A stretch of DNA of 62,272 nucleotides from a bacterium (GCA_028689495.1 JAQTWB010000010.1:1-62272), one strand, 5' to 3'. Shown: positions 9,762-45,693, numbered from the stretch's first letter. The notes: generated by a model not told the origin, from the sequence alone. A program made the numbers and translations.

Positions 9762-9910
9762 TAACCTCAAAATGGGAGTGTTGCGAAATTAGCATTTCGC
9801 CAGGATTGACTTCCGTCAATCCACTTTTTCGCATCTACGATACGAAAAAGTCTCCCCTCTATTAGTTTTTCTTTTGTAGGGCCAAAATGGCCCTACATTT
9901 ACTGCGCTTG
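9762..9910. repeat. Repeat family B, copy 1: a ~150-bp structured element with three hairpins (gcgaaat-tagc-atttcgc; ttgac-ttccg-tcaa; gtagggcc-aaaat-ggccctac).
   Basis: Near-identical to 45554-45693. The two copies bracket the ~36-kb defence/accessory segment. Confidence 0.65.
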
Positions 9911-10013
9911 GTATTCTTTTTAGCGCGCAGGCATCCAGCTTACGCTGTCTGCATTTTGGGTGTGGTGTTCAACAGACCCAAAATGCGCCGGGGAACGACG
10001 GAACTCTCGCAAC

Positions 10014-11957
10014 CTACATCCTGTCTCGTACGTTGATCATCAGCGGCATATCGCCCGAAAGTCCCCACTGCTCATACACTTCCAGCCCCACTCCATTGAC
10101 ACTGCGCTGATACCACTGTCCCGATGACGGACGATAGACTGCGATATCAGCCAGGCCATCACTTTCCAGATCACTGGCAAGTGGCAAATCACCCGGCAGA
10201 CCGAACTGCACGACAGTGTTTTTGTTGTGACAATCGTATGAAGTGCGCGACGGACAGAAATACCAGTTGCCCGATTCCGGCCTCCAGACAGCAAGGTCAA
10301 CCTTGTCGTCTCCGTCAAAATCGCCGGGAATTGGCCGGTCGCCGGACAAGCCCCACTGGTAAGAGTATGTGCTGGCCTCTTCTCCTTCCTTGTGAACCTT
10401 GATGTACCAGGTTCCATTCCCCGGCCGCCAGACGGCGAAGTCGGTCATGCCATCGTTGTCGTAATCAAGTGAGAGTGGCACATCACCGGGTAGCCCCCAC
10501 TGTTCAACACGGTATGAGTTGTCGGCAAAGCGGATATACCAATTCCCTTCGCTCGGTCTCCAGACGGCGTAATCGTTAATGCCGTCTCCATCAAAATCTC
10601 CTTCCATCGGCACATCGCCCGGCAGTCCCCATTGCACAACGCGGTAACTGCTGTCCGCGTGACGGATGTACCAGTTTCCTTCGCTCGGCCGCCAAATAAC
10701 GAGCTCACTGGTCTTGTCGCCATCAAAATCACCGCGAAGCGGCACGTCCCCGGAAAGACCCCACTGAACCATGCTCACCGATTCGGAGAAGGGCTGCCTG
10801 ACATACCAGACGCCGTTTTCCGGGCGCCAGACGGCGATCTCGTCAACCTGTTCTTCTGTTTCAGCAGTAACTTTCATTCTGCGCAAACGGTCGCTCAGCG
10901 GATATGGCTTTAGTATCACCTCTCCGACGCGATCATAGCGATTGCCGTTCTGGCGACCACCCCAGGCGAGAATATGGTTGTGGTCATTAAGCGCCAGCGC
11001 CGAAGTAATGGTCCATGCCGAGCCTGAAACCAGAGCCGGAGTCAGATCCACCAGTCCGCTTTTCGTCCCGACAAGCGGCAAAGCCGAACCGCTACCAAGG
11101 TAGCTGCTGCCGACAATCACACCGGAGTTATTGACGTCGTAGACGACGACATGACTGCCGGCGAAGGGGATGTTCTCCACCGTCGGAGTCTGTGCCGCCG
11201 TGTCGAGATAAAATGTCTCGCCCTCGCCAACTTCACCGACAATAAGGCCATCATCATTTACCGCGTATGGCTTAATCGAGGTATTGCCCACCCAGTTCTG
11301 AATCACGGGAGCAGTGGCTGGTGCGTCGTAAAACATAAATTTATTCGCATAATCCCAGCCAACCAACAGTCCATTATTGTTGATGTCGGAAACTGTCCCG
11401 TAGGGCAAAACAGGATAAAAGGCCGATTGGATATTGATTTCGCCTGCTTCTGTCTGCCCCTGACGATGGCGACAGGCATAATAACCTTCCGACTGAACCC
11501 AGCAGACACTTGCTACGTACTCCCCGCTACCACTTATCGCCGTTGGCATATGCATGGAGGCGTAAGAAGTTGAACCTTTCCCATAAAATGAACTCAAACG
11601 GCCAAGCTCAGTGGTGTAACTGTAAGAATAACCACATATGGAACCGTCATCCGCAACGCCTGTCACCACACCATTCTCCCCGTTCGTCCAGCGCTGGCCG
11701 CTTATCTCTGGTGGCTCAACAGCTGCCTGAAATATTTCCTGAGTACCCCTGATGTAGCTGAAAAGATGTCCACCTGATGGAACGCGATCGAGGTTATCGA
11801 TCTTTCGCTGAACAATTACGCCGTAGTTATAGCCCGCACCGGTGCCGACATGAATTGTCGCAAGAGATTCCGCCGGCAGCGGAGATGAAGACTGGGCATG
11901 TAGATGCTGCGGCAGCAGTAGCATCAGGGACAAGACGATATATTTTTGCAATTTCAT
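10014..11957 (-). CDS. Secreted FG-GAP/VCBS-like repeat protein (beta-propeller type).
   Basis: Signal peptide MKLQKYIVLSLMLLLPQHLHAQS (start chosen at 11957). At least six C-terminal repeats of the form WRPxxGxWYxR...QWGLxGDxPxxGDFDGDGxxDxAVWRP. Confidence 0.7.
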   Translation of the reverse strand: MKLQKYIVLSLMLLLPQHLHAQSSSPLPAESLATIHVGTGAGYNYGVIVQRKIDNLDRVPSGGHLFSYIRGTQEIFQAAVEPPEISGQRWTNGENGVVTGVADDGSICGYSYSYTTELGRLSSFYGKGSTSYASMHMPTAISGSGEYVASVCWVQSEGYYACRHRQGQTEAGEINIQSAFYPVLPYGTVSDINNNGLLVGWDYANKFMFYDAPATAPVIQNWVGNTSIKPYAVNDDGLIVGEVGEGETFYLDTAAQTPTVENIPFAGSHVVVYDVNNSGVIVGSSYLGSGSALPLVGTKSGLVDLTPALVSGSAWTITSALALNDHNHILAWGGRQNGNRYDRVGEVILKPYPLSDRLRRMKVTAETEEQVDEIAVWRPENGVWYVRQPFSESVSMVQWGLSGDVPLRGDFDGDKTSELVIWRPSEGNWYIRHADSSYRVVQWGLPGDVPMEGDFDGDGINDYAVWRPSEGNWYIRFADNSYRVEQWGLPGDVPLSLDYDNDGMTDFAVWRPGNGTWYIKVHKEGEEASTYSYQWGLSGDRPIPGDFDGDDKVDLAVWRPESGNWYFCPSRTSYDCHNKNTVVQFGLPGDLPLASDLESDGLADIAVYRPSSGQWYQRSVNGVGLEVYEQWGLSGDMPLMINVRDRM

Positions 11958-12283
11958 ATCTCGGGCCATGATTTGTAGGTGGCAATTCAAATGATGTGGT
12001 TCTTCGGGCCATACCACAGTAACGATCTCAAAAAAGCAATGAGAGACTGGTTTATACTGCTCGAGATTAAGGTGTTCTAAATCGGGGAAATTAATGTGCG
12101 ACGACTATACACATTGCCATGACTGGAATGGTGGGTGATACTTCGTGCATAAGCATCGCACCGAAAAGTGTGTCGAGATATAAATGTGGGCCGTAACCAG
12201 GACAGGGCGATATGTTTTTGCGCGCTCATATTTCAGGCCTTACTGCTCGTCATTAAATAAACGCTGAAGCCATAAGGAGAAAA

Positions 12284-12583
12284 ATGCACTTCATAATTAT
12301 TGCCCGTGACGGCACAGACGCAGAAGCGGCCAATCGTAGACAAAATGCCCGTGAAGCCCACCTGAAAAATATTGCCGACAATCGGCACCACGTGCTGATG
12401 GGAGTGGCAACTCTTGATGAACAAGGGCAAATGAACGGCTCCGTGCTTGTTGTCGATTTTTCCGATCGCGAAGCTCTCGACCGCTGGCTGGCCGAGGAGC
12501 CCTATGTTGTGCAACAGGTCTGGAAGGAGATCGAGATTGTTCCGGGCAAAGTTGGACCGGCGTTTTTGAAGCAGCTGGATTGA
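12284..12583 (+). CDS. YciI-like family protein.
   Basis: 99 aa, MHFIIIARDGTDAEAANRRQNAREAHL...GSVLVVDFSDREALDRWLAEEPYV. The size and pattern fit the YciI/dimeric alpha-beta-barrel family. Confidence 0.7.
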   Translation: MHFIIIARDGTDAEAANRRQNAREAHLKNIADNRHHVLMGVATLDEQGQMNGSVLVVDFSDREALDRWLAEEPYVVQQVWKEIEIVPGKVGPAFLKQLD

Positions 12584-44286: not shown

Positions 44287-44423
44287 TTTTAGCGCAAGGT
44301 TCCAAACGCAGCTGGCGGTGAACGGCAATATATAACCCAGTCAAATATATAGCCCGGTTCCATACCTTTTAAAAAGGAAGGGTGTGCCCATGTTGTCCTT
44401 AACAGGACACAACCTTCTTTCCA

Positions 44424-45287
44424 TCAATCGTTACTGCGCAGCTTCGCCAGCAGCCTGAGAATTTCCAGATAGAGCCAGACAAGCGTCAAAAGCACGCCAA
44501 ATGCAGCATAAGCTTCCATTTCGGCAGAAGCACGGACGCGAACTCCTTCGTTGATCGTTTCAAAGTCAACGATGAAGTTAAAGGCCGCAACGACACAAAT
44601 GATGAAGGACAAAGCGATACCTCCCGGACCGTTACTGTGAATAATGGAAATACCACTCCCACCGAACAAGGTCAGAACAATATCGGCAAGGTACAACACC
44701 AGGATCGCTGTCATGGCAAATGAAAGAATCTGCATGAAGGACTGCGTTGGTCGAATTAGTTTTGATCCATACGCGAAAAACATCAGGATCATAACTATTG
44801 CCGTGCCGGCAACAGCCTGCATGGCAATACCCGGGTATTGGGCCTCGAAAACTGCCGATATTCCGCCAAGAGCAAAGCCCTCACAAATAGCATAGACCGG
44901 TCCAAGGAATCTGGCCAAGGTTGGGTTGAAAATAACAATCAACGCCAGCATGAAGCCAACAAACGTTCCCCAGATAGTCAGCGATGTGACGATACCAAGG
45001 TCAACCTTGGGAAGTTCAACGTGCGAGACACTTCCATCTTCGTTGTTTACCCGGTAGAGCGTTTTGCTTTCACCATCTGCCTGCTCAACACTCTCCACGC
45101 GGGAGAAGTCGAATCCTGCTGCCTTGTAAGCTTCAAGCCCTTTGTAGAGGGTGAAGCCGCCTGTCAGCATGACAAGCAGTGTAAAAATACCTAGCCAGGC
45201 GAATGTTCCGCCGACTGTCATAGAACGCGTGCCAGACAAGCTGACAAGTTTTTCTACCGTCATAAACGGATTACCTTTACCACTCAT
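44424..45287 (-). CDS. Polytopic membrane protein, possibly of the Bax-inhibitor-1/YccA family.
   Basis: Six or seven hydrophobic helices. The C-terminal ...FGVLLTLVWLYLEILRLLAKLRSND resembles the BI-1 family tail. A periplasmic insert after TM1 is atypical. Confidence 0.4.
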   Translation of the reverse strand: MSGKGNPFMTVEKLVSLSGTRSMTVGGTFAWLGIFTLLVMLTGGFTLYKGLEAYKAAGFDFSRVESVEQADGESKTLYRVNNEDGSVSHVELPKVDLGIVTSLTIWGTFVGFMLALIVIFNPTLARFLGPVYAICEGFALGGISAVFEAQYPGIAMQAVAGTAIVMILMFFAYGSKLIRPTQSFMQILSFAMTAILVLYLADIVLTLFGGSGISIIHSNGPGGIALSFIICVVAAFNFIVDFETINEGVRVRASAEMEAYAAFGVLLTLVWLYLEILRLLAKLRSND

Positions 45288-45553
45288 AAAAACCTCCAAA
45301 AAAACTAAATAAAGTTGGGGGATTATCCCGAAACAACATGGGCTACCCATATGGAGGCTCAGACTGTGAGCTGAATGAAAAGGCTAGTAGTTCGTGTATG
45401 GATGTATTTTTAAACGCACCATACACGAACGACATCGGCTTGATGGTTATGCGGTCCCCATTGAATTTTGTAAAGTTGACCTGAGATGGCAGTCCCGACG
45501 CAAACGGACTCGGTGCAATAAAAAGTGGATCGTGCAGAAGCAAAGAACCTTTC

Positions 45554-45693
45554 ATGGGAGTGTTGCGAAATTAGCATTTCGCCAGGATTGACTTCCGTCA
45601 ATCCACTTATTCCGTGTCAGAGACACGTAAGAGCCTCCCCTTTATTAGTTTTTCTTTTGTAGGGCCAAAATGGTCCTACATTTGCTGCGCTTG
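45554..45693. repeat. Repeat family B, copy 2.
   Basis: Near-identical to 9762-9910, including the gtagggccaaaatgg(c/t)cctac hairpin. Confidence 0.65.

Follow-up and report, generated by a model that had tools for sequence, protein, structure and literature searches.

The window analysed here, 62,272 bp in length, is a complete contig of a bacterial metagenome-assembled genome (GCA_028689495.1, JAQTWB010000010.1:1-62272). It holds two direct copies of a 143-bp non-coding element, hereafter the unit, at 9772-9914 (copy A) and 45554-45696 (copy B), both on the plus strand, with about 36 kb of defence-rich DNA between them. Housekeeping genes put the contig in the Bdellovibrionota. Its Mur ligase is at most 48% identical to that of any species representative, which therefore points to a deep and poorly sampled lineage, and the closest relative of its BaxI protein is 47% identical. 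The evidence given below suggests that the unit is probably an ordinary, lineage-specific structured repeat.

The DNA between the two copies carries genes for an FG-GAP protein, YciI, Fic and a truncated Mrr, a BREX-1 system (BrxL, PglZ type B, PglX, BrxC and BrxB) with extra cassettes, GmrSD, a class D beta-lactamase-like protein (41703-42473), a dehydrogenase fragment and a BaxI/YccA-like protein (44424-45287). A first-pass annotation of the same DNA had reported neither an integrase nor a tRNA here, and this holds: no integrase domain was found in the open reading frames (ORFs) scanned between the copies, and ARAGORN detected no tRNA or tmRNA in the window. Accessory or decayed DNA was also present beyond both copies, in the form of insertion sequence (IS) remnants at 5.7 kb and 45.7 kb and pseudogene fragments at 46.3-47.4 kb.

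That near-identical direct repeats bracket a defence segment of ~36 kb had been claimed before and proved to be real, since MAFFT, a repeat finder and blastn agreed on a pair of 143 bp with 90% identity on both sides of the block. The exact ends claimed at that time (9762-9910 and 45554-45693) did not stand and were refined to the limits given above. The two starts are 35,782 bp apart, and the left 55 nt of the unit (9772-9826 in copy A) are identical in both copies. Similarity starts and stops within a few bases and the flanks are unrelated on all four sides; a short and weak extra match, AACCT, was seen 3-4 nt upstream of either copy. Probes of 53 nt and 42 nt taken from the unit had two sites each in the window, where shuffled sequences led us to expect 0. 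Copy A, recognised by alignment, fold and hairpin census, scored 177 bits with a covariance model of the unit, and copy B, recognised by alignment and fold, 173 bits. No third copy, degenerate copies included, was found in the window by nhmmer or by the covariance model with filters off.

On inspection, the ends of the unit (ATGGGAGTGTTG... and ...CTGCGCTTG) were not complementary to each other, thus there are no terminal inverted repeats, and no direct repeat that could represent a target-site duplication was seen around copy A or copy B. A perfect 8-bp hairpin on the plus strand at 45681-45704, TTTGCTGC-gcttgtat-GCAGCAAA, covers the tail of copy B together with the first bases of its right flank, and a looser counterpart in copy A (CTGCGC...GCGCAG, ~9903-9932) was recognised by eye. 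As this hairpin runs past the tail of copy B, the real right end of the unit may sit a few bases further to the right. A continuation of copy B at 46427-46460, after an interruption, was considered and rejected, the similarity there being no better than noise.

The three hairpins that the first-pass annotation had claimed were all present: GCGAAAT/ATTTCGC (hairpin 1), GGATTGAC/GTCAATCC (hairpin 2) and GTAGGGCC-AAAAT-GG(C/T)CCTAC (hairpin 4). Two features came in addition, namely a variable hairpin between hairpins 2 and 4 (hairpin 3) and a 5-bp closing stem, GGGAG/CTCCC (in RNA GGGAG/CUCCC), which is predicted to make hairpins 1-3 a four-way junction with two corners free of unpaired bases. 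3' of the junction the order is a U-rich (pyrimidine-rich) linker of ~19 nt, the 9-bp, GC-rich hairpin 4 and a 17-nt tail. Hairpin 4 reads GTAG-GGCC-AAAAT-GGCC-CTAC, i.e. GTAGGGCC-AAAAT-GGCCCTAC. The parts of copy A are the closing stem (9774-9778 with 9852-9856), hairpin 1 (9783-9800), hairpin 2 (9803-9822), variable hairpin 3 (9823-9851), linker (9857-9874), hairpin 4 (9875-9897) and tail (9898-9914). Those of copy B are the closing stem (45556-45560 with 45635-45639), hairpin 1 (45565-45582), hairpin 2 (45585-45604), variable hairpin 3 (45605-45634), linker (45640-45657), hairpin 4 with one G.T wobble (45658-45680) and tail (45681-45696). Hairpin loops of 3-5 nt and perfect stems were predicted throughout. 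Compared with shuffled sequence, the predicted stability corresponded to z values between -5.3 and -8.3 on either strand and with RNA or DNA parameters, and 96% of the cells paired in the common structure of the two copies, against 33-46% for slid partners.

Divergence between the copies was distributed very unevenly. In hairpin 3, 11 of 30 alignment columns differed, compared with 4 of 114 elsewhere (Fisher p 4.5e-6), and the loops, the linker and the tail were almost invariant. Despite these differences hairpin 3 pairs in both copies: one AT-to-GC change is compensatory, one pair is gained and two cells are broken. G.T wobbles arise from one substitution in hairpin 4 and, in the shared register, one in hairpin 3, and both pair on the plus strand only. 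This covariation comes from two sequences and is statistically not meaningful. Judged by the predicted pairing, a hypervariable and still paired hairpin within a near-invariant scaffold is the one unusual trait of the unit. A template/variable repeat pair of a diversity-generating retroelement was considered and rejected, as the differences show no specificity for adenine and the unit does not code for protein.

The unit contains no ORF; stops occur in every frame, and through a 1-nt indel the two copies are out of frame with each other. Neither a sigma-70-like promoter nor an intrinsic terminator is conserved within it on either strand, and Rfam 15 covariance models produced no match at gathering thresholds and, with E relaxed to 10, nothing beyond noise. 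The exact 22-base core (3' arm of hairpin 1 plus hairpin 2) was found 0 times in 185,579 GTDB species-representative genomes and 0 times in IMG/VR; its single match in a JGI metagenome is located inside a histidine-kinase gene and was dismissed as chance. The pattern of hairpin 4 had no match in IMG/VR, nor did plasmid and phage sequences yield one when searched with the unit by blastn. Six-frame peptides of the unit, used to search for spurious ORFs, were likewise without match, in a search of low power (the known copies, too, have no recorded ORF). With the Mur ligase as query, 80 Bdellovibrionota loci were obtained (36-48% identity), in which only AroC, RF2, a 7TM-HD protein and AlaRS were syntenic and conserved synteny left of the Mur ligase gene was absent from all 80. 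Searches of these 1.3 Mb with nhmmer and the covariance model gave noise only, the best match (locus L027) consisting of a gene's 3' end plus a hairpin and not of a homologue of the unit. By the measure of these searches, the unit is an orphan confined to this lineage. A retron non-coding RNA, which has a similar topology (closing stem, small hairpins, variable hairpin), was considered as well and discarded because hairpin 3 is short for an msd; among the scanned ORFs, the Pfam and NCBIfam scans returned no reverse-transcriptase family.

The strong and conserved four-way junction, with its compensatory pair and wobble-compatible changes, would suit a functional structured RNA without any role in mobility, either as two plus-strand small RNA paralogues or as a minus-strand 5' leader or regulatory region common to the membrane-protein genes downstream. 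The near-invariant loops, linker and tail suggest a constraint on sequence, and on the minus strand each copy lies upstream of genes for membrane proteins: the BaxI/YccA-like gene at 44424-45287 in the case of copy B, and NfeD plus SPFH/Band 7 at 7210-9210 in the case of copy A. The BaxI/YccA and NfeD/SPFH families are both tied to FtsH-dependent membrane quality control. However, the start codons lie at unequal distances, that of BaxI ~267 nt away and that of NfeD ~560-620 nt, a value that varies with the start assumed, and on the minus strand the wobbles turn into A.C mismatches. The stems are perfect and the conserved internal loops of ligand-binding RNAs are missing. Also the lack of a conserved promoter or terminator within the unit on either strand, of an Rfam match and of a homologue in the 80 Bdellovibrionota loci speaks against such an RNA, and with two sequences the covariation is not significant. 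Altogether we consider this explanation improbable.

The hairpin census revealed 23 perfect hairpins of at least 8 bp in the window, an approximately sixfold enrichment. The palindrome pattern GTAG...CTAC was matched 3 times vs 0.24 expected; one match is hairpin 4, and the other two belong to a hairpin family of the form GGTAG-CCAGACCA-nnn-TGGTCTGG with at least eight sites (22854-22880, 24910-24936, 29097-29115, 29132-29150, 30184-30202, 31223-31243, 31861-31881 and 31924-31944). These palindromes (GGTAG-CCAGA(C/G)C(A/T)-nnn-...TCTGG) are situated in both orientations in protein-coding DNA, namely in pglX and in the small ORFs that lie between it and pglZ, and 57-nt stretches at 22857-22913 and 24913-24969 form inverted repeats with 31187-31243 (79% complementary). 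Such GTAG-tagged palindromes might allow domains to be shuffled by recombination, or they might be intragenic copies of repetitive extragenic palindromic (REP) elements.

Within pglX (ORF 28471-32760, 1429 aa), a segment at 31190-31950 on the minus strand, in frame and covering about residues 270-530, resembles a REP-associated tyrosine transposase (RAYT). It matched NCBIfam NF047646 with E 1e-18 and 67.5 bits, which is below the curated cut-off of 80 bits, and Pfam Y1_Tnp with E 5e-7, and it contains the HUH motif NHVHVIV. PglX without this segment would have ~1170 aa. GTAG-tagged hairpins stand in inverted orientation around it, 31861-31881 and 31924-31944 versus 31223-31243. Since a RAYT gene between inverted REP hairpins is the arrangement that defines RAYT units (Nunvar 2010, PMC2817692), the segment 31190-31950 looks, from profile matches and hairpin positions, like a REP-RAYT-REP unit placed in frame within the BREX-1 methyltransferase gene pglX.

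A second link to mobile DNA was found directly beside copy B. An IS110-family recombinase gene has left its last ~40 codons at 45707-45832 (plus strand), as indicated by tblastn against plasmids, in which annotated IS110 family transposases were matched, and by a reverse tblastn with a Pandoraea IS110 transposase (45710-45814, 57% identity, E 1.6e-6). This remnant begins ~10 nt past copy B on the unit's own strand, and the upstream part of the gene does not survive. Another, more decayed IS110-type 3' remnant of ~17-20 codons was recognised through weak matches at 5680-5730 (plus strand). Its support is weak if taken alone (blastn of 45757-45794 vs 5688-5725, 79% identity; tblastn E 4.6); it shares strand and repeat neighbourhood with the remnant beside copy B. 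On their 5' sides both stumps meet a small repeat directly, the unit in one case (45707) and a repeat termed X-Y in the other (5680). No intact IS could be assigned, as no database protein had even three 5-residue words in common with the 45-aa remnant peptide. A match to a recombinase N-terminus 3' of copy A (E 7.7) lacked the family motif and was rejected.

The X-Y repeat is non-coding, ~121 nt long and present on the plus strand at 45848-45996, downstream of the remnant (~1.6 tandem units), and at 5546-5680 (~1.1 units); its X part ends in a GC hairpin followed by CTAC (CCCTAC). Tandem non-coding repeat units are known next to IS110 recombinase genes, and the X-Y repeat resembles them (10.64898/2026.08.14.744561). 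Further small repeats surround the unit. Just left of copy A, at 9489-9603, lie CGAAAATGGGACCGGGTTAC repeat units in reverse orientation relative to an array at 43582-43775; the family, with the core AACCCGGTyCCATT, has a third locus at ~46718-46746. Within the array, positions 43609-43748 consist of 5 tandem units of 27-28 nt with 97-98% matches and overlap the start of the dehydrogenase-fragment ORF. A repeat of 66 nt is present at 9660-9725 and, with 82% identity, again at 12637-12702; copy A of the unit, the FG-GAP gene and YciI lie between the two. The intergenic stretches around copies A and B are long and also house at least three other families of small repeats with further occurrences in the window. 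We also noted a family of ~40-nt repeats (CCCGGAAATTGCACGTAAGTTCACAGCTGAAAC...) at the intergenic positions 6043-6081, 48319-48355 and 49340-49384, in both orientations.

With an IS110-family gene so close, the unit could be a non-coding module of such an element, i.e. the left-end RNA gene of the remnant's IS or a hitch-hiking small RNA that this recombinase moves in trans. In that case copy A would stand alone as a solo module, and an expanded, cargo-bearing IS110 locus may formerly have been bounded by the two copies. Copy B is positioned directly upstream of the remnant and on the same strand, as bridge RNAs are (PMC11208160), the two wobble substitutions, one in hairpin 4 and one in hairpin 3, pair on the plus strand only, the hypervariable hairpin in a conserved scaffold resembles a specificity determinant, and the lack of inverted repeats and of target duplications suits the IS110 family. 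The ssr9 small-RNA module is moved in trans by the ISPpu9 recombinase, and solo copies of an IS110-associated small-RNA module are documented (PMC12288879); expanded loci of up to ~100 kb in which non-coding repeat units accumulate beside the recombinase gene have been reported (10.64898/2026.08.14.744561). Like ssr9 and bridge RNAs, the unit is a structured non-coding sequence by an IS110-family gene (here a 3' stump) on the same strand, has a solo copy and shows a variable segment in its scaffold. Unlike ssr9, which is located downstream of the recombinase gene, it lies upstream of the stump.

Several observations do not fit this explanation, and we regard it as unlikely. Bridge RNAs contain two large internal loops that bear the target and donor guides (PMC11208160), whereas the fold of the unit, with tight loops and perfect stems, has no such guide loops, and hairpin 3 has no match or complementarity of 11 nt or more elsewhere in the window. 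As the remnant represents only the 3' end of the gene, copy B is joined to its last ~40 codons instead of its start, and a deletion of ~290 codons exactly from the end of the unit would be needed. No trace of a recombinase was detected downstream of copy A, and the 5-residue word comparison with the 45-aa remnant peptide brought up no close intact relative. Moreover, whole-unit mobility beyond ~20 kb was not observed for expanded IS110 loci (10.64898/2026.08.14.744561).

The reading that we favour, although with somewhat less than even confidence, is that the unit is a lineage-specific composite element similar to REPs and bacterial interspersed mosaic elements (BIMEs), non-coding, self-contained and highly structured. 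It rests on two sets of observations: the GTAG-tagged hairpin 4, the RAYT-like segment, the IS110 remnant at copy B and the repeat-cluttered setting on the one hand, and a discrete unit with sharp ends and a strong fold that is not a stand-alone gene on the other. The first-pass annotation had proposed an island boundary or recombination scar and, as a fallback, a REP-like element or small structured RNA; the fallback to a REP-like element gained support from the GTAG-tagged hairpin 4, the RAYT-like segment, the IS110 remnant and the small repeats around, and the scar was neither confirmed nor refuted. GTAG-tagged REPs, REPs within larger repeats and mosaic clusters of intergenic repeats have been documented (Di Nocera 2013, PMC3733652). 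As in GTAG-tagged REPs and BIMEs, which RAYTs mobilise (PMC2817692; PMC3733652), the unit is intergenic, non-coding and hairpin-forming, has neither terminal inverted repeats nor target duplications, bears GTAG/CTAC in hairpin 4, and is accompanied by mosaic repeat clusters, a RAYT-like segment in the contig and an IS110 neighbour. IS110 elements, which themselves have no inverted repeats, often target repetitive elements such as REPs (PMC11208160). In contrast to REPs and BIMEs, the unit contains four different hairpins in a fixed order, a four-way junction and one hypervariable hairpin.

Bacterial MITEs and modular repeats of the ERIC/IRU, Correia, RUP and BOX types have in common with the unit a length of ~100-150 bp, an intergenic location, a folded structure and the role of substrates for rearrangements. 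They possess terminal inverted repeats and usually a TA or short target duplication, or are built of modular boxes, none of which is found in the unit.

The predicted four-way junction, with two invariant hairpins and a fast-evolving one, would form together with the linker and GTAG hairpin in single-stranded DNA or in read-through RNA. If the unit is REP-like, it might be copied as a block by a hairpin-recognising single-strand enzyme of the HUH/RAYT type acting in trans, or by recombination. Further copies would then be expected elsewhere in the genome. A settled unit could offer IS110-type elements a landing pad and provide a portable stretch of homology, and RecA could delete or excise the 35.8 kb between the copies via the 55-nt identical stretch. 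Bracketing of the 36-kb block would be due to two direct copies having fallen in a repeat-rich zone of accretion. As a dispersed REP-like repeat the unit would be an ordinary representative of a familiar class of repeats, of which few descriptions exist from this phylum, and the BREX/GmrSD block, with 55 nt of perfect homology at its sides, could be lost or exchanged by recombination.

Several points weigh against a REP-like element. Classical REPs are 20-40 bp long, occur mostly as inverted pairs and typically number more than 100 copies over a genome. The unit has 143 bp, four unlike hairpins and a single GTAG hairpin without an inverted partner, and two copies are known in all from searches that covered one contig of this genome and the public collections. 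In the published definition of REPs the GTAG tag is unpaired (PMC3733652), whereas the GTAG of hairpin 4 is paired with CTAC, and the hairpins flanking the RAYT-like segment (GGTAG-CCAGACCA...) differ from hairpin 4 in stem sequence. The clustering of differences in hairpin 3 is unlike the simple decay of a selfish repeat. Finally, the copies are direct and stand around accessory DNA, in a contig in which several other pairs of direct repeats are insertion scars.

These other pairs are nested in a mosaic block or lie beside it. The 5' end of pglZ is present three times, at 20137-20337, 22941-23141 and 24997-25197 (90-91% identity), and pieces similar to the 3' end of pglX (22629-22739 and 24685-24795 vs 28465-28575) follow each of these copies. 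The pglZ/pglX repeats bracket two cassettes inserted between pglX and pglZ, one encoding a DUF3644 protein and a 430-aa protein and the other a 178-aa protein and an AAA_21 ATPase. The 3' end of YciI is duplicated around the Fic gene (12506-12574 and 14068-14136, 90% identity), and since this pair is interleaved with the 9660/12637 pair, alternative cassettes set in tandem are suggested. On the far side of copy B, an internal segment of the Mur ligase gene is duplicated in decayed form, 46539-46687 being 79% identical to 53039-53186, and the palindrome downstream of the intact Mur ligase gene recurs by the fragment (46330-46426 vs 52151-52182). Fragment plus palindrome (46330-46687) and the intact region (52151-53186) bracket 5.5 kb with a DUF4143 fragment and an 803-aa protein that had no Pfam match. 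By its arrangement the Mur-ligase pair looks like a further insertion with boundary duplication, beside a core gene cluster. With at least four other direct-repeat pairs flanking cassettes in the contig, boundary duplication is a habit of this locus.

It is therefore conceivable that the unit pair, too, is an insertion scar or island boundary, in which a resident copy of the unit was the entry site of the ~36-kb block or of its first instalment. Direct repeats would result from the action of a since-lost site-specific recombinase or from a Campbell-type single crossover with a circle bearing a diverged copy. That the copies are direct and enclose BREX-1, GmrSD, Mrr and Fic genes agrees with such an event, as do the other cassette-flanking pairs (PglZ, YciI, Mur-ligase and 9660/12637; 79-96% identity). 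By our estimate, a family of two copies would share one 62-kb contig by chance with a probability of ~2% (for a 3.5-Mb genome), and if homology was restricted to a conserved functional element, repeat and fold would be expected to end at the same places, as they do. The copies also share with the attL and attR sites of genomic islands that they are direct repeats around ~36 kb of defence-rich DNA, with 55 nt available for a crossover.

Nevertheless, we rate a scar, although a serious rival, as less likely than a REP-like element. Unlike at attL/attR, no integrase and no target in a tRNA, tmRNA or gene 3' end was found, the covered range being the ORFs scanned between the copies, ARAGORN and, for known RNA genes, Rfam; the sole trace of a recombinase near the copies is the IS110 stump of 40 codons beyond copy B. 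In the other scars, arbitrary pieces of genes are repeated; the unit, in contrast, is a whole structural module whose centre has diverged, and the differences sit in one hairpin and not to one side of a crossover. Outside copy B follow a truncated IS gene, repeats and pseudogene fragments, therefore the 'chromosome' does not start there. In addition, the interior of the block is mosaic and its tetranucleotide signature did not switch at the copies: the GmrSD-BaxI part was similar to the flanks (r 0.88), and only the BREX core stood somewhat apart.

A more far-reaching combination of these ideas would make the unit a transcribed 'end module', a four-way-junction RNA in which the fast-evolving hairpin 3 sets the specificity and which works in trans with an IS110- or HUH-type recombinase, so that a pair of copies defines, captures and moves tens of kb of defence genes. 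We judge this to be very improbable. If true, it would represent a non-coding device that builds mobilisable islands without a resident integrase. More generally, a unit that marks the ends of the block or serves an RNA- or hairpin-guided recombinase would show how defence islands lacking an integrase are assembled and moved.

The reality of the junctions themselves was considered as well. An independent Logan assembly of run SRR22315507 (k=31) holds the same DNA as fragmented contigs, and the contig beside copy B stops 30 nt into the unit, at window position 45583, which is to be expected of an assembly with k=31 at a repeat. Contig ends of this kind were rejected as a gauge of copy number, since an end 30 nt into the unit needs only two copies. 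In a misjoin, the unit would be real and its flanks joined wrongly across a multi-copy repeat, so that the bracketing of the block and the junction of BaxI, unit and recombinase remnant would be chimeric. The window is a contig of a metagenome-assembled genome, and the k=31 assembly breaks at the unit and leaves the joins without confirmation. However, 150-nt paired reads normally resolve a 143-bp repeat with a diverged middle and tail, and no positive sign of a misjoin was seen, making this explanation scarcely probable.

Outside the repeat families described above, a perfect palindrome with a 12-bp stem was found at 13944-13975 just upstream of the Fic gene (AAAGTGAAATAA-cgaaaaca-TTATTTCACTTT), which could act as an operator.

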